64,000 nt of DNA from Candidatus Eiseniibacteriota bacterium (GTDB lineage Bacteria; Orphanbacterota; Orphanbacteria; Orphanbacterales; Orphanbacteraceae). A program made the translations under genes and the position numbers. Under the pieces are notes generated by a model. That model saw only the letters and a list, made by a program, of their open reading frames with translations. It made no database searches and had not been told where the DNA came from. Location of the stretch: positions 10,934 to 74,933 of the forward strand of contig JAJCZU010000006.1 in NCBI GenBank assembly GCA_029262235.1, given 5' to 3'. Positions 8,518-57,295 of the stretch are shown in pieces (position 1 is the first letter of the stretch; each line of letters begins with the position of its first letter).

Positions 8518-11500
8518 ATGAGAATCGGTTATTGCTTCATCGCGGCGCTTTCCGTGATGTTCCTGATGAACGCCGGCCGAGCCGAGGCCGCGCGCGTGTC
8601 CTCCGATGGGGACGGTTCGGTTACCCTTGTCCTGACACCGGACCGCTATCGAATCGCGGAAACGACGATTCAGGGAGAAACGTTCCGCGAGGTAAGGGGA
8701 CTCGGCACCGGCGTCAGCGCGGGGGGCAGGCCCGACCTGCCGACCCAGGGGTACTGGGTCGCGATCCCGGACGGCATGGAGCCGCGACTTACGATCGTGC
8801 GCACGGACTACGAAGATCTTCCGGGGCCCCCGATTGCGCCGGCGCCGAAGGACACCCTGTTCGGACGCACGCGCGAACCGGGGTTCACGCAGTCGATCGA
8901 CCGCGCGTTCTACCAGACTTCCGCGCTGTATCCGGAGGCGATTGCCACGCTCGGCGAGTTCGAGCGCTTCCGGAATCAGCGCGTCGTTCCCGTTCGTTTT
9001 CATCCGTACCGGACCATGCCTTCGAGCGGAATGCTCCGCATTTATAATGAAGTGGAAGTGCGGATCGACTTCGTTCCCGCACCGGCAGAGAAGCGCGCGG
9101 CGGGCGCGCGTGAGCCGGCACGCGACGAGGCGAAGTGGGAGGGCCTGTACCAGGGCACGATCGTGAACTACGAGCAGGGGCGCGGGTTCCGATCGCGGCC
9201 TGCGAGAACGGGGCAGCAGAGAGCTTCGAAGTCGTCCCGTGTGGAAAACGAGTACAAGCTTTTCATCGAGAAGAGCGGCGTCTACAAGATCCCGTTCGCC
9301 GAACTGAACAAGAAGGGCCTCGCCGGGGGCGCCTCCGTCGACCGGATCTCGATCTACAGGCGCGGCTTCTCCGAACAGCTTCTGCAGGACGACCTGAGTC
9401 CGTTCACCGAGGTGTCGCTGCCCACGCGCGTGCTCGACAAGACGGGCAACGGCACGTTCGAAGACGGCGACACGGTGATTTGCTTCCTGCCCGGGTTTCG
9501 AGAAGATCGCATGGAGCGTGACTTCGAGGATCGGTTTGCGATCGAGGCTGTGTATTTCCTGTCTGTCGAAGGGGAGGCCCGCCCGGCCGCGACCCGGAGC
9601 GCGAACCTCGGCCTCGCGAGTCCGACTTCTCTCACGTCGTTCCCCGACTCGATACGATGGGAGATCGACGTGCAGTACGACGGGAAGTCGCCGACCGACA
9701 CGATCGATCACTATTTCGCGGGCGGAAACCGGATCGAAAGCCGTACGACGCAGATCGAACTCGGCGCCATTGACCCCTCCGTTCTGTTCGGCGTGAAAGG
9801 GATGGTGGTTTCCACCGTATCCGAAGGCTCGGGCGCTCTTCTTTATCACCGGTACCGGCTCGAAACGGCGGGCGGGACCGAGATCTTCAATTATCTGAAC
9901 TTCGGCGAGCGCGCGAATCTTTCGCGCACGGGGCGCGTGCACGACCCTGTTCTGCTTGTCGAGGGTCTGAACAACATTCGCTACTTCGGGTCCCGTGGCC
10001 GCGCGGTTGAAACGACGACGCCGGGAGCGGGGGGGCATCTCGACTGGTACGAGATTCACGCGAACTTCCTGTACAAGGCCCACCAGGGTGCGCTTCATTT
10101 TTCGACGGGGACCGGTTCCGGTCCGGTCGCAATGACCGTGACGGGATTCCCGAGCGCGCAGGTTCATGTCTGGGACGTGACCGATCCGTACGGCGCGAGC
10201 GTGATTGAAGCGGCAGCTACCGGCAGTGGCGGGAACTTCGCGATTACGATCCAGGACACGATCAACGGCGGGCGGCACGCGTACCGTGCGTACGCGGGGA
10301 GCGCGATTCCGGTGCTGAAGAGCGCGAAGATCGTGGCGGATCTGCCGACGAACCTCGCGTCGGCGCAGTCCGATTACCTGATGGTCGCGCACGAGGACTT
10401 CTACGATGCCGTCGCGCCGCTCGAGGAGTACCGCGAGTCGAAAGGGTACACCGTGGAGCGCGCGCGGATCAGCGACGTGTACGACGAGTTCAACGGGGGC
10501 GTGAAGGATCCGGTCGCGATCCGGAATTACGTGCGCTACGGATTTACGGCGTGGGACAAGCAGCCCCTTTTTCTGCTGCTCGTCGGGGACGGTTTCGAAG
10601 ACTACAAGAATCTCGCCGTGAATCGGGGGAACAGCGGCGATGACTTCGATTTCATCCCCGCGTACCCGGGTTATACGCGTCAGATTTTCGGAAGCGGCGA
10701 CAACTGGGACGCCAGCGATCCCTGGTTCGGCTTTCTCGACGGCGACCGGGACGCGCTGCTCGACGTCATCGTCGGGCGCATGCCGGTCAAAACCGCGTCG
10801 GAAGCCGAAATCATCGTCGAAAAGACGATTGCCTACGAAGACTTCTCGCCGAACGACACCTGGCGGAATCGCATGATCTTCATGGCGGACGACCGCTGGG
10901 TCTTCGACTCCGGCTGCATCGAAGACGGGCGTCAGCCGCAGTTCGAATCGAACTCGCGCGTGTTCGTCGAGAACCTGCTCGAATCTTCCGCCCGCGACAT
11001 GGATACGGCGACCATTTATCTGAGCACGTCGACGGATGCCGTTCACGAAATGTGCCCGTGCGCCGCGAACCCCAACTCCACACAGGAAGCCGACGTCGAC
11101 TGCGTGATCGCCGGCGCGCGCGCCACGGTCGGAAAGCGCATGTTCGACCAGTTGAACGGGCCGGGCGCATTGTTCGTGAATTTTCAGGGGCACGGAAACC
11201 GGAATGTGCTGACGCATGAAGTCGTCGTCCGTCAGGGGCCCGACTACAGGAACAACACGTCGAACGATTTCGACGTCAACACGAACAACAAGGGACGCCC
11301 TTACATTTTTGCCGCGTACGGCTGTTCGATCTCCGAATTCGATCGATTTACGTCATTCGGTTACGAGGCGCTGACGGAAGTCATGATCCGGAGCGACAAG
11401 GGAGGCGCGGTCGCGGCGTTCGGTTCAACCGGGATCGAATTCCTTTCACCGAATCTCGCTCTCAACAGTTCGATCCTGAAGTATTTCTATCAGTCTCCCG

Positions 11501-12615
11501 GAATCGTTCCTTCCATCGATGTGAACGGAAGTCCGCCGCCCTGGTACCAGGGTGTTCCGCGCTGGTCGATCGGCGAGATCATCGCGCTCGGACTGAACGA
11601 CTTTGCGGTGCGCAGTCCGCTCGGCAGTCCGGATACGATCCGGCGCTATGCGATCTTCGGTGACCCTGCCCTTATGATGGACGCGTCGATTCCGAAATTC
11701 GAAGTGTTCCTCGACGGCATTCCCACCACGAACGGGGGAGTGGTGACATCCAACCTCGACGGCACGCCCGTCCTCGTGACGGCGCAGGTGCGCGACGAGG
11801 TGCTGATCCCGCGTGATTCGATCGCCGTGTTCGCGGGTGCCGTGGCGCTCGACACGGCGGCTTATTCGGTCATCGCCGATACGACGTGGCAGGAAGGGCA
11901 CGCGTGGAACCTCGCGTTCGAACTCGACCTTGACTCGGACGAGTCCGTGGACTACACGCTGCGCGCGGTCGACCTGAACGGGCGCGTTTCGACGTTCGTG
12001 CTGAAGACGACGGCTGCGATGATCCTGACAGTGGACGGACGCGAACTGGTCGATGGCGCCCTCGTTTCGCCGCGACCGACGATCCGCGCCGAAATCACGA
12101 CTCCGCGGCCCGTGACGGCGAACGAGATCGACATCATGATCGATGGCGTGTCGCTGCTTCTCGACAGCCTCGTCAGCATCGACCAGTTCCGGTGGGTCGC
12201 CGTGGCGCGCCCGACCCTGTCGGGCGGAACCCATACGCTGAAGGTCACCGTGGGGGCGCAGAGCGTCGAATACATGATCCGGGTCGATGCCACGTTCCGC
12301 GTGGCGGACCTGCTGAACTATCCGAATCCGGCCGAAGACGGTACCGGCTTCTACTACGAGCTTACGGACCAGGCCGACGAGGTGTCGATCGAGGTGTTCA
12401 CGGTGAACGGGCGCCGGATCCGCACATTCCGCGACCTCGGCTCGCGCGCGGGCTACAACGAGAACCCTCTCGTCTGGGACGGCACGGACGCGGACGGGGA
12501 TCGCGTGGCGAACGGAGTCTACATCTATCGCCTGCAGGCCCGCCGCGCCGACGACCGGGTCGAAGCGATGGGGAAGGCGGTTTTCCTCCGCACCACCCCT
12601 CCCGAAGACGAATGA
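8518..12615 (+). CDS. Peptidase C25 (gingipain-like cysteine protease) with type IX secretion C-terminal sorting domain
   Basis: 1365 aa; signal peptide MRIGYCFIAALSVMFLMNAGRAEA; central block YLMVAHEDFYDAVAPLEEYRESKGYTVERARISDVYDEFNGG...IRNYVRY...PLFLLLVGDG...FIPAYPGY...DPWFGFLDGD...VGRMPV characteristic of PF01364; C-terminal ~100 aa (YPNP..DG..F.Y........V.I.V....GRR.R.......NGVYIYRL) is a Por_Secre_tail/FlgD-Ig-like domain. Confidence 0.8.
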   Translation: MRIGYCFIAALSVMFLMNAGRAEAARVSSDGDGSVTLVLTPDRYRIAETTIQGETFREVRGLGTGVSAGGRPDLPTQGYWVAIPDGMEPRLTIVRTDYEDLPGPPIAPAPKDTLFGRTREPGFTQSIDRAFYQTSALYPEAIATLGEFERFRNQRVVPVRFHPYRTMPSSGMLRIYNEVEVRIDFVPAPAEKRAAGAREPARDEAKWEGLYQGTIVNYEQGRGFRSRPARTGQQRASKSSRVENEYKLFIEKSGVYKIPFAELNKKGLAGGASVDRISIYRRGFSEQLLQDDLSPFTEVSLPTRVLDKTGNGTFEDGDTVICFLPGFREDRMERDFEDRFAIEAVYFLSVEGEARPAATRSANLGLASPTSLTSFPDSIRWEIDVQYDGKSPTDTIDHYFAGGNRIESRTTQIELGAIDPSVLFGVKGMVVSTVSEGSGALLYHRYRLETAGGTEIFNYLNFGERANLSRTGRVHDPVLLVEGLNNIRYFGSRGRAVETTTPGAGGHLDWYEIHANFLYKAHQGALHFSTGTGSGPVAMTVTGFPSAQVHVWDVTDPYGASVIEAAATGSGGNFAITIQDTINGGRHAYRAYAGSAIPVLKSAKIVADLPTNLASAQSDYLMVAHEDFYDAVAPLEEYRESKGYTVERARISDVYDEFNGGVKDPVAIRNYVRYGFTAWDKQPLFLLLVGDGFEDYKNLAVNRGNSGDDFDFIPAYPGYTRQIFGSGDNWDASDPWFGFLDGDRDALLDVIVGRMPVKTASEAEIIVEKTIAYEDFSPNDTWRNRMIFMADDRWVFDSGCIEDGRQPQFESNSRVFVENLLESSARDMDTATIYLSTSTDAVHEMCPCAANPNSTQEADVDCVIAGARATVGKRMFDQLNGPGALFVNFQGHGNRNVLTHEVVVRQGPDYRNNTSNDFDVNTNNKGRPYIFAAYGCSISEFDRFTSFGYEALTEVMIRSDKGGAVAAFGSTGIEFLSPNLALNSSILKYFYQSPGIVPSIDVNGSPPPWYQGVPRWSIGEIIALGLNDFAVRSPLGSPDTIRRYAIFGDPALMMDASIPKFEVFLDGIPTTNGGVVTSNLDGTPVLVTAQVRDEVLIPRDSIAVFAGAVALDTAAYSVIADTTWQEGHAWNLAFELDLDSDESVDYTLRAVDLNGRVSTFVLKTTAAMILTVDGRELVDGALVSPRPTIRAEITTPRPVTANEIDIMIDGVSLLLDSLVSIDQFRWVAVARPTLSGGTHTLKVTVGAQSVEYMIRVDATFRVADLLNYPNPAEDGTGFYYELTDQADEVSIEVFTVNGRRIRTFRDLGSRAGYNENPLVWDGTDADGDRVANGVYIYRLQARRADDRVEAMGKAVFLRTTPPEDE

Positions 12616-12777
12616 GAGCCCCTCACCGCCCATAACCGTGGCGAATAGCGAGCCCCTATCGCTCGCCCATATAATTATAGAAGGAATACATTCCCGCCCT
12701 GGAAATCACCCTCCGGGGCGGTTCTCATAGCGGCCCCCAGGTCCAGGTGCTACAATGCTGCGCCGAAAGGGGGCAGG

Positions 12778-14469
12778 GTGCAGATAATCGACTGGGTGGT
12801 GGTCGCCGCCTATCTCATTTTTGCTCTGGGCGTGGGGGTGTTCTTCGCCCGCAGAGCCGGGTCCGGGATCGAGGAGTATTTCCTCTCGGGCCGCAGCCTG
12901 CCCTGGTGGGTCGCGGGCACCAGCATGGTGGCCACGTCATTCGCCGCGGACACCCCGCTCGCCGTCACGGAACTCGTGCGCCAGTACGGCATTGCCGGGA
13001 ACTGGTTCTGGTGGACCTACGCGATCGGCGGCATGCTCTCGGCGCTCCTGTTCGCCCGCTTCTGGCGCCGCGCCGGCGTTCTGACCGACGCGGAGCTCAC
13101 GGAAATCCGATACGACGGCCGGGGCGCCGCCATTCTGCGCGGGTTTCGCGGATTCTACTTCGCCACGATCCGGAACTGCCTCGTCATGGGCTGGGTGATT
13201 CTGGCCATGGCCACTCTCGTGAGTACGCTGTTTCCCGGCTTCGACAAAGGTCTCGCCGTCGCGCTCTCGTGCGCCATCGCGCTTACGTACGCGGTGCTCT
13301 CCGGCTTCTGGGGCGTTGTCGTCACGGACCTCGTTCAGTTCGCGCTCGCGATGACGGGAGCGATCGCCACCGCGTTCTTCTCCGTGCGCGAAGTCGGCGG
13401 CATGAAGGCCATGCAGAGCGGCCTGCTCGAGGCTCATGGCGCGGGACTTACGTCATTCCTGCCGTCGCTCGACGGGAGTTCGTTTCTTCCGATGTCGGCG
13501 TTTCTGATCTATGTGTTTTTCCTGTGGTGGTGCACGGACAACGCCGACGGCGGCGGCATGATCATTCAGCGCATGAGCGCGTCGAAGAACGAAAACGAGG
13601 CGCTGAAGGCCACGGTGTGGTTCAACTTCGCGCACTACGGACTGCGCACATGGCCCTGGGTGCTCACGGCGCTCGCCTCGCTCATTCTCTTTCCCGACCT
13701 GACCGACGACAAGCTGGCCTACCCGCAGACGGCGCTCACGGTGCTGCCGGCGGTATGGAAGGGGATTCTCGTCGCGTCGATTCTCGCGGCGTTCATGTCG
13801 ACGATCGATACGCACCTCAACTGGGGCGCTTCGTACCTCGTAAACGACATCTACCGGCGTTTTCTGCGCCCGGACGCCTCGATGCCAGGCCTCGTTCTTG
13901 TCTCGCGCATCTCGACAGTTCTGCTGATGGTGCTCGGGGGCATCATCGCCCTGCAGTACAGCACGATCACGGGCGCATGGATTCTGACGCTCTCGCTCGG
14001 CGCAGGCGCGGGCGTCGTTTACGTCCTCCGCTGGGTGTGGTGGCGCGTGAATGCCTGGTCTGAACTCTCGGCCATGATCGCCTCGATCCTCGTCAACATC
14101 GTTCTGCGCGTCTGGTTTCCCGACCTCAAATTCCCGTACTCGATTCCCGTGGTCGTTTTCGCTTCCGCCGCCATCTGGATTCCCGTGACGTTTCTGACGA
14201 GCCCGGTAGGCGACGAAAGGCTCCACACGTTCGTCGCGCGCGTGCGCCCCGTCGGTTTCTGGTCACGCTTCCGTCCTGTAGACGATCCGAACCGGCTCGG
14301 GCGTTGGCTTTTTCTCTGGGTCGTGGCCACTGCCGCGCTTTATGGCTTCCTGTTCGGGGGCGGCGCGGCCCTGTTCGGCCGATGGGGGCTCTCGGGGGTC
14401 TGCTTCGCGATCTCGATTCTGGGCGGCTGGTACCTGTTCCGATCGCTCGATCGGGAGGGCTGGTTTTGA
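12778..14469 (+). CDS. Sodium:solute symporter family (SSS/SLC5) transporter; candidate MurNAc/anhydromuropeptide importer by operon context
   Basis: GTG start 12778; 563 aa, about 13 TM helices; SSS hallmarks (EYFLSGRSLPWWVAGTSMVATSFAADTPL, GWVILAMATL, LNWGASYLVNDIYRRF); 5-nt gap to anmK. Confidence 0.8.
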   Translation: MQIIDWVVVAAYLIFALGVGVFFARRAGSGIEEYFLSGRSLPWWVAGTSMVATSFAADTPLAVTELVRQYGIAGNWFWWTYAIGGMLSALLFARFWRRAGVLTDAELTEIRYDGRGAAILRGFRGFYFATIRNCLVMGWVILAMATLVSTLFPGFDKGLAVALSCAIALTYAVLSGFWGVVVTDLVQFALAMTGAIATAFFSVREVGGMKAMQSGLLEAHGAGLTSFLPSLDGSSFLPMSAFLIYVFFLWWCTDNADGGGMIIQRMSASKNENEALKATVWFNFAHYGLRTWPWVLTALASLILFPDLTDDKLAYPQTALTVLPAVWKGILVASILAAFMSTIDTHLNWGASYLVNDIYRRFLRPDASMPGLVLVSRISTVLLMVLGGIIALQYSTITGAWILTLSLGAGAGVVYVLRWVWWRVNAWSELSAMIASILVNIVLRVWFPDLKFPYSIPVVVFASAAIWIPVTFLTSPVGDERLHTFVARVRPVGFWSRFRPVDDPNRLGRWLFLWVVATAALYGFLFGGGAALFGRWGLSGVCFAISILGGWYLFRSLDREGWF

Positions 14470-14474
14470 GCGGA

Positions 14475-15635
14475 ATGCGCCTGATCGGCCTCGTCAGCGG
14501 AACCTCGATGGACGGAATAGACGCGGCTGCCATCCATGTGCGGGCGCGCGGGGAGAAACTCGCGGTCGCGCTCGAAAACTTTCGCACGGTGCCGTACCCG
14601 GAAGGGGTCGCAAGGGCGCTTCGCAGGCATCACGGGCCCGGGAAGAGTGACCGCGATGAACTCGCCGCGCTCTCGATCGAGGTAGGGCGCCTGTTCGGTC
14701 GCGCGGCGGCCCGCGTGGCGGGAGGCGCAGCGCGGCTGCAGGAATATGACGCGATCGGATCGCACGGGCAGACGCTGCTGCATCGCCCCGGCGCGAAACA
14801 CCCGTTCAGCCTCCAGATCGGGGACGGCGTGACGATCGCCGGCCGGACCGGGCTTCCGGTCGTGTACGACTTTCGTTCCGCGGACATCGCGGGCGGGGGT
14901 GAAGGGGCGCCGGTGCTGCCGATCGCGGATTACCTGCTCCTGCGATCCGGCAGGCGGGATCGCGCCGTGCTGAACCTCGGCGGGGTTGCGAACCTGACGT
15001 GGCTTCCGCGCGCCGGCGGCTGGGGCGGCGTTCGTTCGTTCGACACCGGGCCCGCCAACGCACTCATGGACAGGATCATGCAGTCGCGCTTCGGAAAGCC
15101 GTACGACAAGGACGGTGGGCTGGCGCTCTCGGGAAGCGTGGACGACGCGCTGCTCGCGCGGCTCATGCGCCATCCGTATTTTCGGCGCAAGCCGCCGAAG
15201 TCCACCGGCTTCGAGGAATTCGGCGACGCGTTCGCCCGGGATGCGCTGCGGGGTCTGCGCAGGAACCGGATTCCGGACGTGCTGGCGACTCTGGCCGCGC
15301 TCACGGCGCGCACGGCCGCCGCAGGATTCAGCTCTCTGACGAGCACGCCGTTCGACCTGGCGCTTGCCGGCGGGGGCGCTGCGAACGGCGCGATCACGCG
15401 CGCTCTCGAGCAGGCGATTCCGTACGCCCGCTTCGTCCCCCTTGCGGAGTGGGGGCAGGATCCTGCGGCGCGCGAAGCGATCGGCTTCGCCGTGCTGGCC
15501 CATGAATTCCTCCGCGGCCGGCGTTATGTTATGAAGCACGTTACCGGCTCGAAGAGCGTGGCGCCTCTCGGCGTGCTCGCCCCGGGCGAGAAACCGTACA
15601 CCCTTCGTTTTCCCCTCGATCGGAATCTCCCATGA
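14475..15635 (+). CDS. anmK: Anhydro-N-acetylmuramic acid kinase
   Basis: ATG 14475 (MRLIGLVSGTSMDGIDAA...) 5 nt after the symporter stop; AnmK N-terminal motif GLMSGTSMDG-like; about 386 aa. Confidence 0.85.
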   Translation: MRLIGLVSGTSMDGIDAAAIHVRARGEKLAVALENFRTVPYPEGVARALRRHHGPGKSDRDELAALSIEVGRLFGRAAARVAGGAARLQEYDAIGSHGQTLLHRPGAKHPFSLQIGDGVTIAGRTGLPVVYDFRSADIAGGGEGAPVLPIADYLLLRSGRRDRAVLNLGGVANLTWLPRAGGWGGVRSFDTGPANALMDRIMQSRFGKPYDKDGGLALSGSVDDALLARLMRHPYFRRKPPKSTGFEEFGDAFARDALRGLRRNRIPDVLATLAALTARTAAAGFSSLTSTPFDLALAGGGAANGAITRALEQAIPYARFVPLAEWGQDPAAREAIGFAVLAHEFLRGRRYVMKHVTGSKSVAPLGVLAPGEKPYTLRFPLDRNLP

Positions 15636-16909
15636 AACGCAACGCTTTGTTCCTCTTGTTTCTGATCGTACTGACGGCCGGCTGCTCACCCCGCCCGCCC
15701 GTGCGTCTGTCGCCGGTCGCCGCGGCGCGAACACCCGTCGGCCCTGTCCGGATCGCGCTGCACGAAAGCGCGCCGGAGGTCGCGGTCGCGTTTCCCGAGG
15801 GAGGGAAATGTGTCTGGCAGGGCGGCGATCTCGATGTCCCGGCGGGGGGCTCGCTCACATTCGTCGCGGCGGAGGCGAACGAGATGCACGTGCGCGAAGC
15901 GGGGAATCTGCGCGCCATCGTGACGGCGGCCACCGTGCAGCCGACGGCGGGCGGCGTCTTCGAAACGGAAGGGCGTCCTTACGGCGGTACCTTCGACCTC
16001 ATCATTCACGACGGGGGGATTCTCGCGATCAACCGGATCGGGCTCGAAGAGTATCTGCGCGGAGTCGTTCCGTGGGAGATCGGATTCCTGTCCGAAGACA
16101 AGCTGGAGGCGCTCAAGTCGCAGGCCGTGGCCGCCCGCACCTACTCGCTGACACGCATCCTGGCCAGCGACGATATCTGGGACATGAGCGCCGACGAAAT
16201 GGATCAGGTCTATCGAGGACTCGAGAAGACGAGCCCGGTCGTCGATCGCGCGATCGCGGAGACGGCGGGCCTGGTGGCGATTGACGGCCACGAGCTCGTG
16301 CGGACGTATTACTCTTCGACATGCGGCGGGCGTACTTCGCCACTCGAAGATGTATGGTTCGATCGTGAAGGTGCGCGTTATCTGCGCGGCGTCCATGACA
16401 CGCCTTCGGGCGGCCCCGACGAAGAAGCTTCGTACTGCAAGCGATCGCCGCGGTTCGTGTGGACCGAGATCATGGGCGCGTCGGATATCGAAAAGATTCT
16501 GGATGCGCTTGCGCTCGAGATTCCGCGCAATCGGGCTTCGCTCGGACGCCTGAAGAACATCGAGATCGGACGCCGGGGCAGAACCGGTCGCGTGCTCTAT
16601 ACGGTCTTCGAAACCGAGGGCGGAAGATTCGAGATCCCGGCCGATCGCGTGCGCTGGGTTCTTCGTCGCCCGGCGGACGGCGGCATCCTGCGAAGCACGT
16701 GGTTCAATTTAAAGGTAAAACGTTCCGGCGGCTTCGTCCGCGAAGTGCAGGTCGACGGTCGCGGCTTCGGGCATGGAATCGGCATGTGCCAGTGGGGCGC
16801 GATGGGAATGGCCGAGCGGGGCCGTTCGTACGAAGAGATCCTGAAACACTACTATCCCGGCATCCGGATCGGTATCTACGATCCCGGCGCGCGCGGGGGA
16901 GATGCGTGA
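15632..16909 (+). CDS. SpoIID/LytB-domain lipoprotein (amidase enhancer family)
   Basis: Lipobox LTAGCS; SpoIID/LytB signature EEYLRGVVPWE...ALKSQAVAARTYSL...YYSSTCGGRT; ATGA overlap with anmK stop. Confidence 0.8.
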   Translation: MKRNALFLLFLIVLTAGCSPRPPVRLSPVAAARTPVGPVRIALHESAPEVAVAFPEGGKCVWQGGDLDVPAGGSLTFVAAEANEMHVREAGNLRAIVTAATVQPTAGGVFETEGRPYGGTFDLIIHDGGILAINRIGLEEYLRGVVPWEIGFLSEDKLEALKSQAVAARTYSLTRILASDDIWDMSADEMDQVYRGLEKTSPVVDRAIAETAGLVAIDGHELVRTYYSSTCGGRTSPLEDVWFDREGARYLRGVHDTPSGGPDEEASYCKRSPRFVWTEIMGASDIEKILDALALEIPRNRASLGRLKNIEIGRRGRTGRVLYTVFETEGGRFEIPADRVRWVLRRPADGGILRSTWFNLKVKRSGGFVREVQVDGRGFGHGIGMCQWGAMGMAERGRSYEEILKHYYPGIRIGIYDPGARGGDA

Positions 16910-18408
16910 GCAGGACTCCCGATTCGATCCGGCGCGCGTGCGGCGCCGTTCTGATGGCCGCCCCGCGCGGCAAGGCACTGACGAAAGCGGAAGAGAAGAT
17001 CCTGCGCGACGGCCGCGTCGGCCACGTCATCCTGTTCGCGCAGAACGTGGAATCGCCGGAGCAACTCGCGAAACTCACGAAACAGATTCGAGACGTCGCC
17101 CCCGGACGCTGCCTGATCGCGATCGACCACGAGGGCGGGCTCGTGGCGTTCGGCGCGGGCGCGGTGGAGCGTGGTCCCACGGCGCTCGCGCTCGGCGCCA
17201 CCGAGTCGGAGTCGCTTGCTCAGAAGTGGGGGCGCTACTTCGGCAGCGCGTTTCGTGCGTGCGGGGTGGATGTCGTGTTCGCGCCCGTCCTCGATGTTCT
17301 GTCGACGGAGGGGGGCGAGGTGATCGGCACGCGCGCTTTCGGTTCGAAGCCGGCGCGCGTGTCGCGGCTCGGGGAAGCGATGCGGCGCGGCCTGGAAGCC
17401 GGCGGCGTTCTGACCTGCGCCAAGCACTTCCCGGGACACGGCGGCGTGGTCGCCGACTCTCATCTGACCCGGCCGCGCGACGACCGCCCGCTTGCCCGCT
17501 GGACGCACCGCGATCTCGTGCCGTTCCGCGCCGCGATTCGCGCCGGCATCGGTTCCATCATGGTCGCTCATATCGAAACGCCCGCGCTCGGCGCAGCGGG
17601 CGTGCCGGCGTCCGCGTCGGAAGCCGTGCTGCACGGCCTGCTGCGCGAACGGCTCGGCTTTCAGGGCATCATCGTGTCCGATGCGATCGACATGAACGCG
17701 TATGAGCCGTCGCTTCTGCGCGCGAGCCTGCTGGCCGGCGTCTCGCTCTTTCCGATGGGAGGGACGCTGCGTGATGCCGCGGCACTCGGCGCGAAGATCG
17801 CGGAAGACCTCAGGGACGATGGCGACGGGCACTGGCATCTCGCGCGGAGTGCGATGGAGATCGCAAAATGGGCGGGATCCGCTGGAAAGCGCGCGTCGCG
17901 CTCCCGGGCCAAGCCGTCACCCGTGCCTGCGATGCCGGGCGCGGCGGGGATCGCGCGCCAGGGGAGGGCGGCTCCGATGGTCACGTCCGACGCCGGCATT
18001 CTGCTTCTGCCCGAAGAGCTCGGAGGTCGCATCCGGCTTCCGATCGACACGGGCCATATCGCGAACGAGCGCGGGGAGGTCTGGATGAGGCGTCACGTGC
18101 GCGTCTATCCTTTCGATCCGGGCGCGGGTATACGCCGGAAGCTTCTCGCCGCCCTTCCTGCCGGAGAGCCTGTCACGCTCGCCCTGGCGCACCGCGGGAA
18201 GCCGCCCGCCGGCCAGGTCGCGTTTCTCGAGGCTCTCAGAAGCGACGGCAGGCTCGGCTGCGCGGTGTCCCTTCTCGACCCGCACGACCTCATGGCCCGG
18301 CGCGAGGTGGGGTATCGGCTCCATACATTCGACCCGGGCCCGGAGCCCCTCCGATACCTCGTCAAGATCCTTGCAGGCGAAGCGAAACCAACGGGAAAAC
18401 TTCCCTGA
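16906..18408 (+). CDS. nagZ: Beta-N-acetylhexosaminidase NagZ (GH3) with about 190-aa C-terminal extension
   Basis: GTG 16906 overlaps the SpoIID stop (GTGA); alternative ATG 16954; GH3 motifs GHVILFAQN, IAIDHEGG, VVFAPVLDV, KHFPGHGG.V.DSH; the ORF N-terminal extension from 16459 overlaps SpoIID in another frame and is rejected. Confidence 0.8.
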   Translation: MSRTPDSIRRACGAVLMAAPRGKALTKAEEKILRDGRVGHVILFAQNVESPEQLAKLTKQIRDVAPGRCLIAIDHEGGLVAFGAGAVERGPTALALGATESESLAQKWGRYFGSAFRACGVDVVFAPVLDVLSTEGGEVIGTRAFGSKPARVSRLGEAMRRGLEAGGVLTCAKHFPGHGGVVADSHLTRPRDDRPLARWTHRDLVPFRAAIRAGIGSIMVAHIETPALGAAGVPASASEAVLHGLLRERLGFQGIIVSDAIDMNAYEPSLLRASLLAGVSLFPMGGTLRDAAALGAKIAEDLRDDGDGHWHLARSAMEIAKWAGSAGKRASRSRAKPSPVPAMPGAAGIARQGRAAPMVTSDAGILLLPEELGGRIRLPIDTGHIANERGEVWMRRHVRVYPFDPGAGIRRKLLAALPAGEPVTLALAHRGKPPAGQVAFLEALRSDGRLGCAVSLLDPHDLMARREVGYRLHTFDPGPEPLRYLVKILAGEAKPTGKLP

Positions 18409-18463
18409 CAAGTGATTGACACTTTCGAAAACTCAGTGCTACATTCCTGATCTATTTGCTTGC

Positions 18464-18540
18464 GGGGTCGTGGTGCAGCTGGTTAGCACACTGGCCTGTC
18501 AAGCCAGAGGTCGCGGGTTCGAGTCCCGTCGGCCCCGCCA
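18464..18540 (+). tRNA. tRNA-Asp (anticodon GTC), CCA encoded
   Basis: Acceptor GGGGTCG/CGGCCCC, D-arm GTGC-AGCTGGTTA-GCAC, anticodon stem CTGGC/GCCAG with loop CTGTCAA (GTC), T-arm GCGGG-TTCGAGT-CCCGT, discriminator G + CCA. Confidence 0.9.
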
Positions 18541-22053: not shown

Positions 22054-22357
22054 GGCCGCGATTTTTTTCTGGAAAAATCGTGCCTGTTCCCACACCGGGA
22101 AGGCGAGAAGGAACGCGTTGAAAACAAAGTAGTTAGAAGGGTGTAAGGGTCTCTTTTCCGGCTCGCAGAGAGCAGCCGGAAGAGCGTGCCCATTACTGTA
22201 TTTTGGCTTAAATGAAGAAACTGCAATCACATAGAAGTCTCAAGGAGGACACGGAGTGGAGAACGACTCGTGGTTACAAAGCGTTATTCCGCTTTTATCT
22301 TTCCGAAGAAGAAAACCTCGCGGGATGACCATATCCCCGCAAAAGGAGGGCTCGAGT

Positions 22358-25300
22358 ATGAGTAGTCGTAGGAAGGGACGACTCAAAACACTCTCCCTGT
22401 TCGCGCTGCTTCTGACTGGAATGCTGTTCGCCCCTCAGGCGGATGCGCTTCCTGAAGTCGGGAGCCTTACGATCAGGGATGTGACGTACGATTCTGGCGC
22501 TGACAGGCTGGATATCGTATTCGACCGTACTGTGTCGGCAGCTGCCGCCACGGACTTCCGTTTTAACGACGGAACCACCTATGCCGGCGGCGCCCCCGTA
22601 ATTTCGGGGCTGCTCGGTAACGTAGTCAGTTTGACGACGTTCTCGACAGCGCCGGTGCCAGGTACCACTACGGTCGCCATCAAGGATTCGCTTGCCGCGA
22701 TCACCGGGTTGGAGATTATTACGGGGAACGCGACGGCAACGCGCGACTTCTCGTTCCACCCGATCGTGACAGGCCCTGTGATCGCTTCGGCGCTCTACAC
22801 GGCTGGTGAATCGGATCTCGATCCTACGAACGACGTCATTACGGTAGAGTTCAATACCGGAGTGACGTTCGTACCGGCGGCTCACGACACCCTGTTCAGC
22901 ATGCCGCAGCTCAAGGGCACGCAGACAATCGGTGATGACGACGGTGACGAGTTCCTCACACTCATCTTCGGTGCTGACGAAACGACGGTCCTCGACTACG
23001 TGTCGACGGTCGGACTCGCGTCGGACATTCTTGCCGGAATGGGCATCCAGGATTCGAACACCGACGAGATGACCTCGCTCACCCGCGTTCGCGTGGGTTC
23101 GGGCAGTGGTGCATTTCCGCTGTACGCTCCCTGGTACGCTGATGCGGGTGGCGTAGGCGGCGGCAACGACCGCTTCTACTATGTGATGAGCGGAGATGTT
23201 TCGTTCAACACGCCCGGCATCGGGATCACCGGTATCACCACGTTCAGTGGCGCTGGTGTGGCCCCGACGTTCAGTGGTGAAGTCTGGTCGACTCCGAACC
23301 GCCGCACGGTCGTCGGTGTCCGGAACGCGCATAAGGACGGCAACTATCTGAGCGCTCCGGTGCTTGGAACTTCGACGCGTCCGACGCTCCCGGTTGATGC
23401 CGATCTCGTGAACGCAACGCTGACCACGGCGGCCGATTCGGCTGATTCGGGGCCGGCTGGCGTGCCGATCGGTTTCGGTCCCGCGATCATCGCCGCTTAC
23501 TGGGATGGCAACGCGGATCAGATCATTCTTTACTTCTCGGAAGGCTTCGGGACGAACCCGGTGGCCGCCGACTTCCAGATCAACGGCGATGTCGCAACAG
23601 GCATCGGCGCGGGCTGGACGCTGGCAACGGTTGCCGGACGTGAAGTTCGCCTGAATGCTCCGGCTGACACGACCTGGCTCGAAGGCGATGTGATCAACAT
23701 CGAAACGACGCCGGTCATGGTCGGCCTTTCGGGTTTCGTGCCCTCGTTCACCGGCGCGGCCGGTACCGTGGACAACGCGATTCCGATTCGCGACGCGACG
23801 CCGCCGTCGAGCAACCTCGCTCTGACGGACCTTCTCGAGCGGAATCCGCAGGATACGCTCTCGCACGGCTTCATCAGCCTGTACGAGAATCCGGATCTGG
23901 ATGTCTGCTATTACCTCATTCTCAGCAAGATCGGGGAAGAGGTTAACAACGGCGACTTCGACACTACGCTCAACGTATGTGGTTCGATTCCCTTCCCGAA
24001 TCCGCAGGGCGTTGACGGCGACACGGCGACGGTCATTATCGACATTACACCGGGTCTGAACGATGCCACCGGAACCGTGATCGCCCAGGGCGACCGCGTC
24101 TTCTTCGGTGTCGCTCCTGTCGACAAAGAAGGGAACATCGGACAGTCGTATCGGGTTCCCGGCTCTCTTGTAGCCGGCCCTGTTGCCTGTCCGCGTGACT
24201 TTATTACGATTGCCGACGACCTTCGTATCAGCCTCGGCGCTGACTCGATCGTCGTTACGGACAACAATATCTGGATCAACGGTCACGCCGACCCGGTGCC
24301 GGACACTCTCGTAGGGGATACGCTCGCTGTCGATCCGTTCGACATCGTCGTCGTCTACCAGGATGCCGCGCTCACGGACTCGATCGCGGCCGGTACTGCT
24401 ACGGACGTCGGATCCTTCGTGATCGGACTCCCGAGCGACGCGGGTGATGCCAACGACTGGATCTACCTGACGTCGCGTGACCAGTTCGGCAACCAGTGCC
24501 CGGGCTTCACGCAGATCCTGAATGATCAGACACCCCCCGCTATCACAAAGCATGGCGATCCGAAGAATCCGTGGGCGATTTACGGCCCCGGCGATTCGGT
24601 TTGCGTCTTTGTTGAGGGCGCGGATACGACCGCCGGCGTCGCGATCGATCAGATCTCGTCGCTCCTGAGCGGTACGGTCGAAATCCTGACGTTCCACATG
24701 CCCCAGGAAATCGTGGCTTCGGCCAGCTTCGTGGCATGGGGTTCGGATCAGACTGACAACGACGGCGACTGGATCTCGGGCGCCGTTGGCGACAGCGCGG
24801 TCTGTGGACCGGCGTATCGCCGTCCGGCCGACACGTGCCGTGTCGGAACGGAAGACTATGCTGAGCCGTATTGCGACGAGAACGGCAACGGGGCATTCGA
24901 CCTCGGTGAGTACTTCGTCGACTACAATGGCAACAAGGTGTTCGACGGCGGTGGCGACTTCAATCTCGACTACCTCGACGCACCGTACACGGGCGACACC
25001 ACCAACATCGGTGGCGAAGGCCCGACCATGCGTCAGGAACTCGCGATGTATAAGGCTTCGTTCGCGAACCTTGACGCCGCTCTAGCGAATCCGGAACCGG
25101 TTCAGTGGCTCATCTGCCGCGTCCGGCTCCTCGACAAGAACGAAAACGAGTCGATTCTTCTCGACACGATCACGTTCGATAATCTCGCTCCGGAACAGTC
25201 GCAGTTCTCGCGCCTCGCGCGTCGTGACTCGTCTCAGTCCGGTGCGGGCAGCGGTAACCTGCTTCCGGATATCGGTGGCACGGCCAACTGCTACACCGTC

Positions 25301-28300
25301 GGTAACTTCGTCGACTTCGACGTCACGACCTACAGTGACTCGCACGACGTCGATTACGTTCTCCTTCAGATCAACACGGGTGGAGGCTGGGGTGACCTCA
25401 ACTTCGACCCGAACGGTGATTTGAATGCGGACGGTCAGCCGGGTAAAGCCGGTATCGATGATGACTTCGATGGCTGGGCGGACACGCTCGACGTCCAGGT
25501 TCACAACGCCATGCAGAACAGCCTTGCGGCTGATGCTGCTGACACGGATTCGACGCCGGCCGCCGGTGACGGGATCTGGGCGCTGAACGACGGAATCGAT
25601 AACGACAATAATGGCGTGATCGATGACGCGACGGACACGACGTACGCTGCCAACTTCATGGACGATGACGACGAAGACGGGATGCTCGACGGTACGACCG
25701 TTTCGACTCTCGACGCTGTCATCGGTGGTGGCTTCGGCCCCGGTGTCAACATGTTCCCGCAGTACCTGCACGTTGCCGGTATTGCCGCGACGGACACCAG
25801 CCTCAATGTTCCGGGTGACGGCTTCAGCGATGAAACCGCCCTTCTCTTCCCGGACATCGGCACGCCGATTCCGCTCACGGGCACGGACGAAGTGTTCGGC
25901 TGGGCGGCGCTGAACGGGTTCAACCTGAACATGCGCATGATCCAGCATCACTACAACATCCCGAACGAAACGCAGTTCAGTCTGCGCGCCGTTCCTTACG
26001 ACACGCGTGGCGGCCGCATAGGCCCGATGTCCAAAGCCGGTGGCGTCTTCGATGACGACATTGCGGCGAACCGGACCGGGAACAGCGACCCGACGAAGGC
26101 GATTCAGATCTGTCTGATCGTCGACACCACGGGTGTTGCCTGCGCGATCGATGTCGCTGCATTCGGTGAGAACACGGGCGCCGACAGTGCGGCCGCTGCG
26201 AACATCGACTACACCGCATGGGATTCGGAAGATTCGACGTACACGTCGCCGGCCGCACCGCTGAGCTACACGCTCACGGCTGCGGGTTCGGGCGCGGAAA
26301 TCGACTCGGTCGTCTTCTACGCGATGATGTGGAATGTCGATCCGGTCGATCCGGACACGTGGCTCGGTACGTGGACGCGCGTCGGTGCTGATTCCGACGG
26401 CATTCCGTACAACACGGACTGGACGGCTCCGATCGTCACGAACAAGCCGTGTGACAAAACGCTTCGTTACTACTTCTACTGCCAGGCCTTCGGCGCGTCC
26501 GGTCTCTTCGAAGAGGCCCTCGCGGATTCCGATACGGCGCTTGCAGAACTCGTAGTCGAGGTCGTGGACCATGTGTTCCCGATCACGAACATCACGAGCG
26601 TGGGTAACGATTACGACCTGACCAACGGTGCGACGGTTCCTGCCGATTCTGCGATCCACATTCGGATCGAAGGTACGGCGGATCTCGACGACCGCGACGG
26701 TCTGGCCGGCTTCAGTGACATTACGAGCATTGAATTCCAGCAGCGTCGTACGAACAACGGCAACAACAGCGCCGGACCGTGGTACACCATCGGTTCGATC
26801 GCGACGCCGTTTGATTCGATGCCGCCGGTTGACGTTGTCTGGCGTACCGATACGCTGACCGCACGGGACTACGATGTCCGCGCGATCGGTATCGACTGCG
26901 AAGGCAACTCGAATATCAAGTTCACGCAGGTCGTGCATGTCTCCATTGACACGCTCGGTCTTCGCGCATACATCGAGCCCCAGGTCTTCGAATCATCAGA
27001 TTCGATCACGCTTACGGCTCAGGTCTTCATTCACGACGAGTCGATTGACAATGTCGACTTCCAGGTATGGCCGGACTCGAATGAGAACTGCCTCCCGGAT
27101 GAAAACATCTCGTGGGTGTCGATCTACAACGACGACAACGACGATTCGTCGAGCGCCGATCCGGGTGGTGATGTCACCCTCCGTGTCGGTAGCGGAACGC
27201 TGTACGAAGTCAGCCAGCTCACGCCGGGTGACAAGTACGTCGACTTCGATGCGGATCACGGTTACATCGACTACGACGGTGACGGCTACTCGCCGATCGA
27301 CCCGGTCGTATGGGATGACAACAGCGACGGCTTCTACGATGAGTCCGATGGTGACACCACCGTGATCGGCCAGGTCGTGTCGACGGGGACGCCTCCGGCG
27401 ATCACGTCGTTCGACGCGGACGAATTCTACGCCGACTACAACACGAACGGTGACCTCGACGACGATGACTGGATCTTCAAAGAAGGTCTCGGCGGCTTCG
27501 AAGCCGGTTCGGATGAGCATCATACGTGGCAGGGCGGCTGGAACGTTGCGGACCTTTCGGGTTCGTGGTTGATCCGGTCGGTCGCGACGGATGAGCTCGG
27601 TAATGTCGACACCGACTCCAATACGGCGATTCCGTACATCTGCTGCGGTCTCGACGTCGATGCGCCGGCCGCTCAGGTCTGCAAAATCGCGATGGGTCTC
27701 GGTGGCTTCTCCTGGTACGACGGCATGCCGGTCGACTCGGTAGTTTGCGGTGACAACGAATGGGTCAAGCTCTGGGCTTGCCTGAACGACTCCGCCGACT
27801 ACGCCGATCTCGACTACATCCGGTTCGAGTACTCAGTTGATAACGTGAACTGGACCGACCTCGACGTGAACGACGACAACGACTTCTATGTCGATATCGA
27901 CGACACGCTCGGGTTCTCGCTCGGCGATGCCATCGTTCGCGATGACTACAGCGCCGACACCACGTTCACGGTGGACGCTTCCGACGTTCTGCTTCGCAAC
28001 GGGATTGCGGGCGACATCAGCGACATCTACGGATATCGCATGTTCCCGCTCTCCGACGAAGACGGCGCCGGTGGTGGTGATGAAGACGGTGACGGCAATG
28101 CGGACGAGGATGACTTCGACGAAGAAGACAGCCGCGATCCGTACTGCGTCTACTTCAATATTCGCGACCTGACGATGAACGACGGTCTTTTCCGCACCTC
28201 GACGCGCGTTTACTTCCGCGCCGTGGCCGTGGACGAGAACGGAAACGAAGACACGGATCCCACGATCACGCAGTTCGTGATTCAGGAAAACGTGGATCCG

Positions 28301-31300
28301 GAAACGGACATCGTCTGGGCAACGGACGAAAACGGTGACACGCTCGACGTCTACCCGGCCACGCAGGATGGTGACGGCGGCGATGCGCTCTACCTGATCA
28401 ACCAGCTGAATCTCCACGTTACTGTGGAAGACTCCAGCACGGTCGATTCGGTGTACGTCTGGTACCGTTGGAATCCGAAGGCCTACGAAGGTCTCAACAA
28501 CCTCAACAATCCGTGGCAGCGCGCCGCGGTTGTGGATGTTGTCTATCCGTTCAATCTCGATTGGGACATCAGCGGTCTTACCGATGGTTGCTATCAGTTC
28601 GCCGTGATTGCTCGCGACGAAACGTGCAACGAATCGGCTCCGCGTCTCAATCCCTACGAATTCACGAAGCTTTCGGTCCTGGCCGAAATCGAGTCCGCGC
28701 TCCGTCCGCTCGACTGGACGAAGAACGGCAATCTCGATCATCACAGCTCCGTGACGCTCGATACGGTTCAGGTCGGTGCTGAACTCTGGATCCGCGCGGA
28801 ACTTTCCGCGTCGGCCACGGCAGCGGACGCCGCGAATGCTGAAGTGTACTTCTGGTACGCCGACCGCGTTCTTGGTGAAGAGCTGACGGTTCAGACCTTC
28901 TACCCGTATATCTCGAGTGATGTTGCTGCTTCCGACAGCGGTTACAGCATCTTCGGTGACGAGGACAACTGGTGGTGTGACGTTCAGGTGCACGTGGATA
29001 CGGGCACGGCAGACGGCATCGCCACTTACTACACGAACGACGATTTCGAAGCTCTCGCGGCGCCGACGAAGTTTGACTTCACGGTCCGTGGCGGCTCGAA
29101 AATCGAGTTTGGTGCACAGCTCGCGTCGACGGACGTGGCCTACGTCAGCTACAACTACACTGGGTGGCAGCTGATCGCGGACTCACCGGATGACGACGTG
29201 GACGAAAACGGTTACTTCACGAGCGCCTGGGATCCGGCCGATCCGGTACCGGCACCTGAGAACAAGGGCCTGACGTGCGCCTACGACATGATCGCTCAGG
29301 TTCAGTACGACTTCGGTGGCGATGACAACTGTCTCGCCGAAACGCCGTGGTCCGAGAACAAGATCGTGCTGCTCCAGGAAATCGACGGACCGGAAGTCAC
29401 GCTTCACGGCTTCTTCTGGGACGAAGATTCTCCGTTCACGGAGTACAACTGGTCGGGTAACCCCATGCGCCAGTCGAACGGCTCGCATCGCAAGACGAAG
29501 CTCTGCGGTATCGAGTACGACGCGTTCGTGATTGTGGACTCGGTCGAAGCCGACAGCGTCAAGCTGGCGTTCGACTCGGGTACGCAGTACGACCTGACGA
29601 ACTACGTCACGGGTGACACCATCACGCTGACGATCACGATGAACGAACAGGACTTCCTGTGGTTCACGAATCCGGCGATCTTCCCGGATTCGATCGAGAA
29701 CGTACATCTTCTCTGGGACACCTCGGGTGACACGCAGAAGATCACCATGTACGACGACGGCGCGCACAACGACGGTGCAGCTGACGACGGCTGGTGGGGT
29801 ACGCAGGTCGACGTCATCGTGGGCAGCTCGCTCCGTGACTACAACTACCAGTTCGATATTGACGGCTCGGGCGACGAAGACGGCGTCTTCAACGATCCGC
29901 GCGTCAACGGCAGCGACGTTCAGGTTCCGGCCGACTTCTGGCACCGGAACTTCACGACGGAGCTGGGCGAAGGCACGCACACCGCGGTGGCGAGCGCCTG
30001 GGGGAACTTCGGTGTCCTCGGCACGAACACCACGAGCGCGCAGGGTCCGATCGTCTTCACGATCGACTGCACGCCGATGACGGTGGAAAGCCTGAATATC
30101 GTTCAGGATTGCGACTCCGACGACGAGTTCCAGTTCGTCGCGATCATTCGCGACGCGGGTGAGCTCATCACCGATATCTTTGAAGTAGACGAAGTCCGTT
30201 TCCAGTACGCGACCGACGTTCATAAAGACCGTTGGATCGATCTGGAAGACCTCGACTACTTCGATCGCGAAACCGGCTGGGTATGGGAAGGCAACTGGCC
30301 TTCGAGCGCTCTGCCGGCCAGCGATGGGATCGATAACAACGGCAACGGCATCACCGACGAACCGGAAGAAGAAGACTACGAATTCTGCATCCGCGTCGTG
30401 GTAGCCGATTGTGGCTGGGCCGTCACGGTCTTCCCGACTGTTCCGGAAGACGTAACGGTTCGTATCGATCGCAGTGCTCCGACGATCACGATGACCTCGC
30501 CGGCTCAGGGCGCTACGGTCACGTACGGTGAAGACTTCACCGTCTGTGCCCAGCCCGACGTGACCGGTCAGGAAATCGATTACTACGTGTTCTACTTCTC
30601 GGATCAGTCCGGGAACTGGATCCCGATCGACCCGACTCCGCAGGACGACGGTGATGATCCGTGGGTGCCCGCCGATGGTGACAACGAGGTCTGCGTGACC
30701 TTCGACACCGACTGGCTCGGCAACCAGGAAGATCAGTACGTGCAGTTCCTCGCAGTCGCCGTTGATAACGGCTGCAACCGTTCGGATTCGACGCAGACCA
30801 CGCCGATCGTGGCGGCTGTGAACGATACGATCGGGCCGGCGGCCTGCATCATTTCGATCGACCTTGATTGCGACAACGAAATCTCGGTCGCCGACCCGAA
30901 TCTCCGGATTCAGGGTGATGAAGTCACCGTTGTCGGTAAAGTCCTGAGCGACGCAGACCGTGTTTCGGTTGTGGAGTTCTGGCTCAACGACGGTACGACG
31001 AATCATCTCGTCGGCTTCGAGAACGACCTCAGCGGTAATCCGGCGGCTCTTTCGTTCACGTTCAACGCGAACGATTACATCGCCAGCGGTACGACTGCTG
31101 AAGGATCGATCTGGTTCCTTGCCCGCGACCTCGACGGCAACCCGGACCCGACACCTCTCATGGTGCCGGTGACATGGGACCGCGTGGATCCGAGCGTGAA
31201 CTACACCGCAGTGAACTTCGTAGACGGCACGGAAGACTATGCCGACGATGACATCGTCGACAACACGTCGCTCGCGCTGAAAGCGGATCCGTTCACGGGG

Positions 31301-37069: not shown

Positions 37070-37313
37070 TCAATAAGGCTTCGGGGGGGAGCTTGACTCC
37101 CCCCCAAGCCTCTTCATATTCGAGGGCCCGGAATTCACCGTGGCTCTCGAACATGAGGAGGACCTTGATTCTGAGGTTTTCTGATTGGTCAAAGAGGGTG
37201 AGATGAAACAGCGAGTTGATAATAAAAGTCAGAGTGAAATCAGAGAGAGAGTCAAACAGTCGGATGAGTCATTGAAGTACTCATTTGATCCCTATGAGAG
37301 GAGGACCGAGAGA

Positions 37314-56208: not shown

Positions 56209-56243
56209 GACTTCCTTTCCATGGTAACGGCTGGTCCTTGCAG

Positions 56244-57158: not shown

Positions 57159-57295
57159 GGGCACAGTATAGTTAGTTAAAACCGATGATGCCATGTTTTA
57201 TTATCTATTTTACTAACGATCGGATTTGGGCGATACTTCGTGTGTGCAAGCAAATGGTCTTCGATCCGTTCCCCTTACACAAGGAGTGCAGATTC

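Follow-up and report, generated by a model that had tools for sequence, protein, structure and literature searches.

We describe here a four-gene operon at positions 12778-18408 (+ strand) of a 64,000-nt stretch of DNA from Candidatus Eiseniibacteriota (contig JAJCZU010000006.1, hereafter the window), in which genes of a known pathway, the recycling of peptidoglycan sugars, stand together with a member of an uncharacterised and very widespread transporter clade. The genes are co-directional and code, in this order, for a transporter of the sodium:solute symporter (SSS) family, the kinase AnmK, a lipoprotein with a SpoIID/LytB domain and the two-domain beta-N-acetylglucosaminidase NagZ, all four being found where the initial annotation had placed them. 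On balance, we favour the view that they form a self-contained unit salvaging peptidoglycan sugar, with the symporter as the importer. As its gene context indicates, the symporter quite probably imports some peptidoglycan-derived N-acetyl-amino sugar, and the disaccharide made of N-acetylglucosamine (GlcNAc) and 1,6-anhydro-N-acetylmuramic acid (anhMurNAc), possibly still carrying its peptide, is put forward tentatively as its cargo here.

The gene junctions, read off the DNA, consist of a 5-nt gap between the symporter gene and anmK (TGA-GCGGA-ATG) and of two 4-nt overlaps, ATGA between anmK and the SpoIID-like gene and GTGA between the latter and nagZ. The GTGA/ATGA overlaps of the initial annotation are thus confirmed, whereas its "5-nt gaps" have to be read in the singular, since just one such gap exists. 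A 162-nt intergenic leader and promoter region (12616-12777, + strand) separates the stop codon of a C25-peptidase gene from the symporter gene. Downstream, a tRNA-Asp(GTC) gene (18464-18540, + strand, detected by ARAGORN and Rfam), which stands outside the pathway, marks the boundary of the operon and is preceded by its own promoter-like site, TTGACA-18-TACATT at 18416-18445. Considering the junctions, the own upstream intergenic region and the tRNA with its own promoter-like site, the four genes look like one transcription unit.

The proposed importer (12778-14469, + strand) is a protein of 563 residues with about 14-15 transmembrane (TM) helices, starting at a GTG codon preceded by GGGGGCAGG. 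It matched the SSS family (PF00474; Transporter Classification, TC 2.A.21) over residues 34-434 with 110.9 bits for a cut-off of 22.8 (E 8.9e-32) and stayed below the stricter NCBIfam superfamily model TIGR00813 (133.5 versus a cut-off of 184). The NCBIfam equivalog cut-offs were far from being reached, with scores of 72.8 versus 515.5 for PutP, 58 versus 328 for PanF, 76.5 versus 401 for PRK10484 (YidK-type) and 47.5 versus 320.75 for the VC_2705 family. The symporter thus did not fall in with PutP, PanF or any other SSS transporter whose specificity is known, a grouping that the initial annotation had named, together with an ampG elsewhere, as what would speak against the proposed role; the scores lie far under the equivalog cut-offs and the nearest structures are sugar symporters. 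The protein is not a member of the AmpG family, its sole Pfam match being PF00474 and the fold search returning only SSS/LeuT-fold proteins.

The AlphaFold2 (AF2) model of the symporter (predicted local distance difference test, pLDDT, 84.6) exhibited a LeuT-type fold with two helices past the Pfam domain at the C-terminus, a part of the protein for which Pfam gave no match even at E 10. The top Foldseek matches of this model were SGLT2, SGLT1, SiaT and vSGLT, with template modelling (TM) scores of 0.67-0.76, and the best solved relatives by sequence and profile were vSGLT and SGLT1/2, then SiaT, in agreement with the fold ranking. Residues S341-T342 do not vary among 18 clade members and fall, in the alignment with vSGLT, on its "VSS" segment (Ser-Ser); we take Ser364/Ser365 in TM9 of vSGLT to be the hydroxyl pair of the Na2 site. 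The galactose-binding AEQF and YEW of vSGLT are replaced in the clade by invariant ADTP and NWxWW. From the sugar-symporter matches, S341-T342 and the replaced galactose positions, the protein is predicted to be sodium-coupled and to belong to the sugar-carrying branch of the SSS family, in which its binding site would be distinct. It is part of a large uncharacterised SSS clade of proteins of about 570 residues; more than 8000 database entries matched it at E <= 1e-10, under the automatic label "Na+/proline symporter".

The second gene, anmK (386 residues; 14475-15635, + strand), showed a full-length family match, PF03702 covering residues 1-370 with 291.7 bits (E 1.1e-86), and its best NCBIfam equivalog, NF007148, scored 369.4 bits, slightly under the cut-off of 387. 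The SpoIID/LytB domain of the third protein (425 residues; 15632-16909, + strand) was confirmed by TIGR02669 (189.8 versus 83.3, E 8.6e-56) and PF08486 (64.6 versus 23). Its N-terminus, MKRNALFLLFLIVLTAGC, is a signal peptide closing in the lipobox LTAGC, and the N-terminal region had no Pfam match even at E 10. In the alignment with Bacillus anthracis SpoIID (4rwr), the Glu of its VVPWEIG segment stands opposite the VVASEMN Glu, which we take to be the catalytic residue. With a TIGR02870 score of 128.1 for a cut-off of 234.75, the protein is not an orthologue of sporulation SpoIID; by family and motif it is a probable periplasmic lytic transglycosylase.

The NagZ protein (500 residues; GTG at 16906 to 18408, + strand) reached 216.8 bits with NF003740 for a cut-off of 207. 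Its motif K157 H158 F159 P160 G161 H162 G163 ... D168 S169 H170 (KHFPGHG....DSH), an instance of K-H-[FI]-P-G-[HL]-G-x4-D-[ST]-H, presumably NagZ-specific, was invariant in 23 homologues. The AF2 model built with these 23 homologues (pLDDT 89.6) superposed in Foldseek over both domains with 6k5j (TM score 0.88, 514 columns), Bacillus subtilis NagZ (4gyj) and the Synechococcus protein 3sql. This full-length match to two-domain GH3 N-acetylglucosaminidases bears out the claimed architecture of a TIM barrel followed by an alpha/beta sandwich. The C-terminal domain itself found no match in Pfam even at E 10, and its last 65 residues align with the part of the homologue P0253 that matches PF01915 (GH3_C). 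The public gene call (P0241) gives a protein of 484 residues starting at ATG 16954; the GTG at 16906 is the likelier start from the sequence, because NagZ homologues keep an N-terminal "GQLxMA" and the corresponding GAVLMA begins upstream of ATG 16954. No signal peptide was found on the window NagZ.

The gene order, with overlapping junctions, is kept in three other Candidatus Eisenbacteria assemblies (GCA_025782575.1, GCA_016930695.1 and GCA_016867715.1). The neighbourhood beyond the operon is likewise syntenic in these assemblies, which points to retention of the operon and not to its independent assembly. Between the window and the loci L087-L089, the transporter is the best conserved operon protein, with 64-75% identity, compared to 43-48% for AnmK, 51-56% for SpoIID and 46-48% for the N-terminal domain of NagZ; symporter relatives at 64-67% identity carry the label Candidatus Eisenbacteria, and a protein of the same 90%-identity cluster bears the NCBI label "Gemmatimonadetes bacterium". 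Over the same loci the transporter thus evolves far more slowly than the three enzymes encoded with it.

A scan of one genome per species yielded 593 loci with symporter relatives, of which the best 80, at 40-52% identity, came from Acidobacteriota, Gemmatimonadota, Poribacteria, Spirochaetia, Thermodesulfobacteriota, Bacteroidota, Planctomycetota and others. These are the loci most similar to the query, related genomes included, taken as 20-kb slices; their neighbouring genes were clustered, the clusters were named by Pfam and the result was cross-checked by tblastn. At least one peptidoglycan or amino-sugar gene was present within 10 kb in 21 of the 80 loci. Within this distance, a linked cluster in which GH3, NamZ and PF00144 proteins are mixed through fusions was found in 17 of the 80 loci, a BadF-type sugar kinase in eight, MurQ in five, AnmK and NagA in three each and SpoIID in one, while a GH3 protein was found independently with the NagZ N-terminal domain (tblastn) in 12. 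The single SpoIID case, L013, agrees with the remark of the initial annotation that SpoIID is uncommon in such a unit. For the 12 GH3 matches, a rough per-locus background of 0.5% (single-copy gene) gives P ~1e-14, a value that ignores the non-independence of the loci and is indicative only; a fairer count is that of the distinct arrangements, about ten, spread over at least eight phylum-level groups.

The arrangements closest to that of the window were murQ>anmK>nagZ>SSS in Spirochaetia (L081), murQ..anmK>nagZ>SSS in Thermodesulfobacteriota (L072), nagZ>SSS in Dadabacteria (L085) and anmK>SSS with a 7-nt gap in an uncultured bacterium (L062). NagZ beside AnmK and SSS (window, L072, L081), or beside SSS in L085, has 500-515 residues, two domains and no signal peptide. 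Other arrangements were PF00144-NamZ< SSS> murQ> nagA> in Terriglobia (L032), NamZ adjoining SSS in Acidobacteriota (L027, L047), GH3, GH3-PF00144, SSS and BadF kinase in several Gemmatimonadota loci, BadF kinase, alanine racemase, GH3-PF00144, SSF and SSS in Marinimicrobia (L006), SSS then PF00144 with NamZ close by in Aminicenantes (L004), and SSS flanked by a GH20 hexosaminidase and an M20 peptidase in Bacteroidales (L090). In a neighbour-joining tree, the cell-wall-sugar contexts were scattered over the whole clade and the Eisenbacteria branch adjoined that of L072, L081 and L085. Given the same order in three other Eisenbacteria genomes and the recurrence of the SSS clade beside peptidoglycan-sugar genes in other phyla, the gene arrangement is more than chance.

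The related loci held some further features. Secreted fusions with an adjacent SSS gene occur in Terriglobia, Gemmatimonadota and Marinimicrobia, joining PF00144 to NamZ (L032:3286-5685, L036:1651-4146) or to GH3 (L006:3633-6488, L054:6876-9989, L064:6897-10004); from their domain content, they may be single-polypeptide machines stripping both peptide and sugar off peptidoglycan. In L006 (6531-7997), L032 (at 324), L060 and L071 (at 7438), a second, more distant SSF-family gene adjoins the clade member or lies not far from it, that of L006 coding for a 488-residue protein directly upstream of the clade member. Such neighbours suggest paired transporters of differing cargo. In a metagenome-assembled genome (MAG) of Pyrinomonadaceae, the SSS gene and a ROK kinase gene are directly preceded by the gene of an HGSNAT_cat/DUF5009 membrane protein (L026:8708-9901). 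A contig binned as a Methanosarcinaceae archaeon (L084) carries a 43%-identical clade member with an adjacent ROK kinase, an archaeal occurrence that could be bin contamination or horizontal transfer. The Poribacteria loci L003 and L008, their adjacent SLT gene excepted, were not counted as support, as their enolase-superfamily, GFO and AP-endonuclease-2 genes may mean sugar-acid catabolism.

In the pathway that we propose, the SpoIID/LytB lipoprotein would act in the periplasm as a lytic transglycosylase, as suggested by its family and its conserved Glu, cutting glycan strands to leave 1,6-anhydroMurNAc ends; in work on Bacillus, the SpoIID family is reported to act on peptide-free glycan. 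The SSS symporter would then import the freed N-acetyl-amino sugar across the inner membrane with Na+, a role that we infer from the operon structure and the cross-phylum linkage. In the cytoplasm, NagZ, identified by sequence and structure, would take off GlcNAc and AnmK, identified by sequence, would turn anhMurNAc into N-acetylmuramic acid (MurNAc) 6-phosphate. The downstream steps, MurQ or MupP/AmgK/MurU, and NagA, would have to be encoded outside the operon. That the co-transcribed symporter is the likely importer, as was first proposed from the operon, agrees with the operon structure and with the linkage of the clade elsewhere to NagZ, AnmK, MurQ, NamZ, NagA and sugar kinases. Since NagZ has no signal peptide in the window, L072, L081 and L085, GlcNAc-(anh)MurNAc would have to reach the cytoplasm intact, and it is this absence, together with that of a periplasmic glucosaminidase in the operon, which favours the disaccharide as cargo and would give the symporter an AmpG-like role. 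The disaccharide scheme is also the simplest, no component from outside the operon being needed.

Several points weigh against a salvage unit with the symporter as its importer. The main objection concerns size: characterised SSS proteins are not known to carry anything above about 310 Da (sialic acid being an example), and a disaccharide of 478 Da would be unprecedented as an SSS cargo. Every transport claim made for the symporter rests on gene context. In the 64-kb window, no murQ, nagA, ampD, ldcA, mpl or BadF/ROK kinase gene was found. Among the related loci, 59 of the 80 have none of the peptidoglycan or amino-sugar genes within 10 kb, the loci are phylogenetically non-independent, about eight from Gemmatimonadota having one common arrangement, and their genes come from a heuristic caller of open reading frames (start-codon trimming and a codon-position GC filter). 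Elsewhere in the clade, the linked glycosidases are secreted or lipoproteins (GH3-PF00144 fusions, NamZ, GH20) and come with sugar kinases, a pairing that suits the uptake of a monosaccharide (MurNAc or GlcNAc).

Such a monosaccharide importer, MurP- or MurT-like and carrying anhMurNAc/MurNAc or GlcNAc while another permease encoded elsewhere, AmpG or a different one, feeds NagZ, is an alternative that we consider rather unlikely for this operon. SSS proteins are not known to carry anything larger than a monosaccharide, and the transporter gene abuts the kinase gene (5 nt in the window, 7 nt in L062) as in known pairs of a transporter and a first enzyme. The clade also occurs with secreted exo-glycosidases releasing single sugars (NamZ in L027, L047, L032 and L036, GH3-PF00144 lipoproteins in L006, L054 and L064, GH20 in L090), and near MurQ, NagA and sugar kinases of the BadF or ROK type. 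The NamZ context, however, does not discriminate, NamZ-type enzymes also releasing disaccharides (bioRxiv 10.1101/2021.12.02.470905). Moreover, the operon has no periplasmic enzyme that could act on what a lytic transglycosylase releases and set anhMurNAc free, the NagZ proteins of the window, L072, L081 and L085 bear no signal peptide, and no second permease is encoded within the window.

It is also conceivable, although we would not expect it, that the unit feeds on foreign wall debris, its glycan-cleaving lipoprotein and its symporter harvesting the peptidoglycan of dead neighbours as a source of carbon and nitrogen, and does not serve self-recycling, a possibility that fits either cargo. 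Secreted degradative proteins are encoded around the operon (the 1365-residue C25 peptidase of the gene just before it, a C11 peptidase, sulfatases and beta-helix proteins), the linkage to murQ and nagA in other phyla suggests catabolism, and Tannerella scavenges foreign peptidoglycan with comparable clusters (PMC7670621). On the other side, AnmK and a cytoplasmic NagZ are the classical enzymes of self-recycling and the operon has no outer-membrane uptake component; the sequence itself offers nothing to separate scavenging from recycling. A cargo unrelated to the cell wall (proline, pantothenate or a monocarboxylate such as lactate or acetate), in which case the symporter would have the transcript but not the pathway in common with the enzymes, seems improbable to us. 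This would accord with the automatic annotation of relatives as "Na+/proline symporter", with the weak NCBIfam matches to PutP and PanF and with the roughly three quarters of related loci devoid of nearby cell-wall genes. However, all equivalog cut-offs are missed by a wide margin (73 versus 515, 58 versus 328, 76 versus 401), the nearest sequences and folds are sugar symporters, and the linkage to NagZ, AnmK, MurQ, NamZ or sugar kinases recurs in roughly ten arrangements and at least eight phylum-level groups.

Concerning the surroundings of the operon, the leader at 12616-12777 holds a terminator-like hairpin, GCGAGCCCCTATCGCTCGC then CATATAATTATAG, which belongs to the C25-peptidase gene before it, as well as another strong hairpin. 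Its TATAAT-like box is common to L087 and L088, the remainder being poorly conserved among Eisenbacteria. A regulatory RNA in this leader was considered and rejected on account of this poor conservation, of the lack of any Rfam family match and of a modest fold z-score of -2.5, which the two hairpins explain. The gene upstream (8518-12615) codes for a secreted, gingipain-like C25 peptidase with an FlgD_ig-type C-terminal domain and is syntenic in all Eisenbacteria relatives. The mltG gene previously noted in the same window is real (148-1164; PF02618, E 2.7e-80) but lies 11.6 kb upstream of the operon, beyond unrelated genes, and outside the unit. A single giant open reading frame at 22256-37069 (4903 residues in the public call), with faint Big_3_3/FlgD_ig matches, is probably a giant surface protein, and is followed at 37185-39002 by an OmpA-domain protein with thrombospondin-type repeats. 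At 55015-57194, a NhaA Na+/H+ antiporter (PF06965, E 1e-138) adjoins a LysR-type regulator, probably NhaR; NhaA is relevant only as a sign of a sodium gradient on which an SSS symporter could draw.

What is understood of peptidoglycan recycling comes almost wholly from Proteobacteria and Firmicutes. Import is known to proceed through AmpG, Opp-MppA, MurP or MurT, to which YejBEF-YepA has lately been added. In many diderm phyla from the environment, AnmK and NagZ are present without a recognised importer, as exemplified by Rhodothermus marinus (PMC6987092). If the proposed role is true, a sodium-coupled SSS importer would be a new transporter class for peptidoglycan recycling. A very large family that bears only the label "Na+/proline symporter" would thereby gain a function, the substrate range of the SGLT/SiaT fold would be wider, and the turnover of necromass and of cell walls in soils and sediments could be predicted better. 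A further step, which we think rather unlikely, would make the clade of about 570 residues the main permease for the anhydromuropeptide disaccharide, replacing AmpG in many non-proteobacterial diderm phyla. No sodium:solute symporter before it would have been shown to carry a disaccharide, and the gap of organisms with AnmK but without AmpG, MurP or NagE would be filled; the possible candidates, given with the same reserve, would be Eisenbacteria, Gemmatimonadota, Acidobacteriota, Spirochaetota, Desulfobacterota, Rhodothermota and others.

Among the known systems, AmpG, present in E. coli, in many Gram-negatives and in Tannerella (Tf_AmpG), occupies the same proposed place in the pathway, bringing GlcNAc-anhMurNAc(-peptide) to cytoplasmic NagZ and AnmK (PMC7670621, PMC12214514). 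AmpG is a proton-driven transporter of the major facilitator superfamily (MFS), whereas the window symporter has the LeuT-type SSS fold, so that the likeness is one of proposed role only. No AmpG-like MFS gene is present in the 64-kb window, whose polytopic proteins are the symporter and NhaA only. In 90 loci scanned for neighbours with several TM helices, DUF819, RodA/FtsW, HGSNAT/DUF5009, a Na+/H+ exchanger, a Na+/alanine symporter and two generic MFS proteins were found, none of them recurrent. No paper in the searchable literature joins "solute symporter" with NagZ, AnmK, anhMurNAc, MurQ, AmpG or NamZ.

The murT-murK-murQ cluster of Tannerella forsythia likewise encodes an amino-sugar importer that is independent of the phosphotransferase system (PTS) and shares its transcript with the enzymes that begin the use of MurNAc in the cytoplasm. 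Unlike the window operon, Tannerella is without AnmK, and it is free MurNAc that MurT takes up (PMC7670621). The initial annotation had named MurT as the nearest SSS precedent, which is now doubtful: MurT has indeed been placed in the "sodium symporter superfamily" (PMC5790795), but Stenotrophomonas maltophilia NagF, 35% identical to MurT (PMC13055268), contains an HGSNAT domain and nine TM helices (PMC13055268, PMC11887185). From this likeness and the HGSNAT domain of NagF, MurT would probably be an HGSNAT/DUF5009-type protein and not a PF00474 protein. Neither a BadF-type kinase nor a MurQ homologue was found in the window, the one Bacteroidales context inspected (GH20 and M20) had no murK or murQ beside the clade member, and a homologue search from the Bacteroidales member L086 gave no Tannerella protein among the matches listed.

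Within the SSS family, vSGLT, SGLT1/2, SiaT and the GlcNAc1A symporter OngIT have the fold and the Na2-site Ser/Thr in common with the window symporter. The cargo of SiaT and OngIT consists of acidic N-acetyl amino sugars (PMC9537276) and is chemically close to MurNAc. Compared with these sugar transporters, the window symporter shows only 18-22% identity, ADTP/NWxWW in place of AEQF/YEW and two extra C-terminal helices. MurP, which belongs to the PTS, and the ATP-binding cassette (ABC) systems Opp-MppA and YejBEF-YepA are also importers of wall fragments other than AmpG; they differ in energy coupling and fold, and none is an SSS protein. Transporter classes have repeatedly been recruited for wall-fragment uptake (PMC10622912, PMC13209645, PMC13507758), the listed importers being AmpG, Opp-MppA, YejBEF-YepA, MurP and NagE (PMC13209645, PMC13507758, PMC10622912).

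The murQ-murR-murP-amiE-nagZ-namZ unit of B. subtilis likewise gathers a transporter, a two-domain NagZ and MurNAc enzymes in one transcription unit. There, NagZ is secreted and the transporter is of the PTS type, whereas the window unit combines a cytoplasmic NagZ with the kinase AnmK and a SpoIID protein. The latter agrees with the engulfment lytic transglycosylase SpoIID of Bacillus and Clostridioides in its SpoIID/LytB domain and in the conserved Glu taken to be catalytic; it differs in being a lipoprotein with a 130-residue N-terminal region of unknown fold, encoded in a recycling operon of a non-sporulating diderm. The last comparison is with Rhodothermus marinus, in which AnmK and NagK are present and AmpG, MurP and NagE are absent (PMC6987092). 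A MAG of the Rhodothermales (L075) carries a member of the clade, and the missing importer of R. marinus is exactly the gap that such a transporter would fill.

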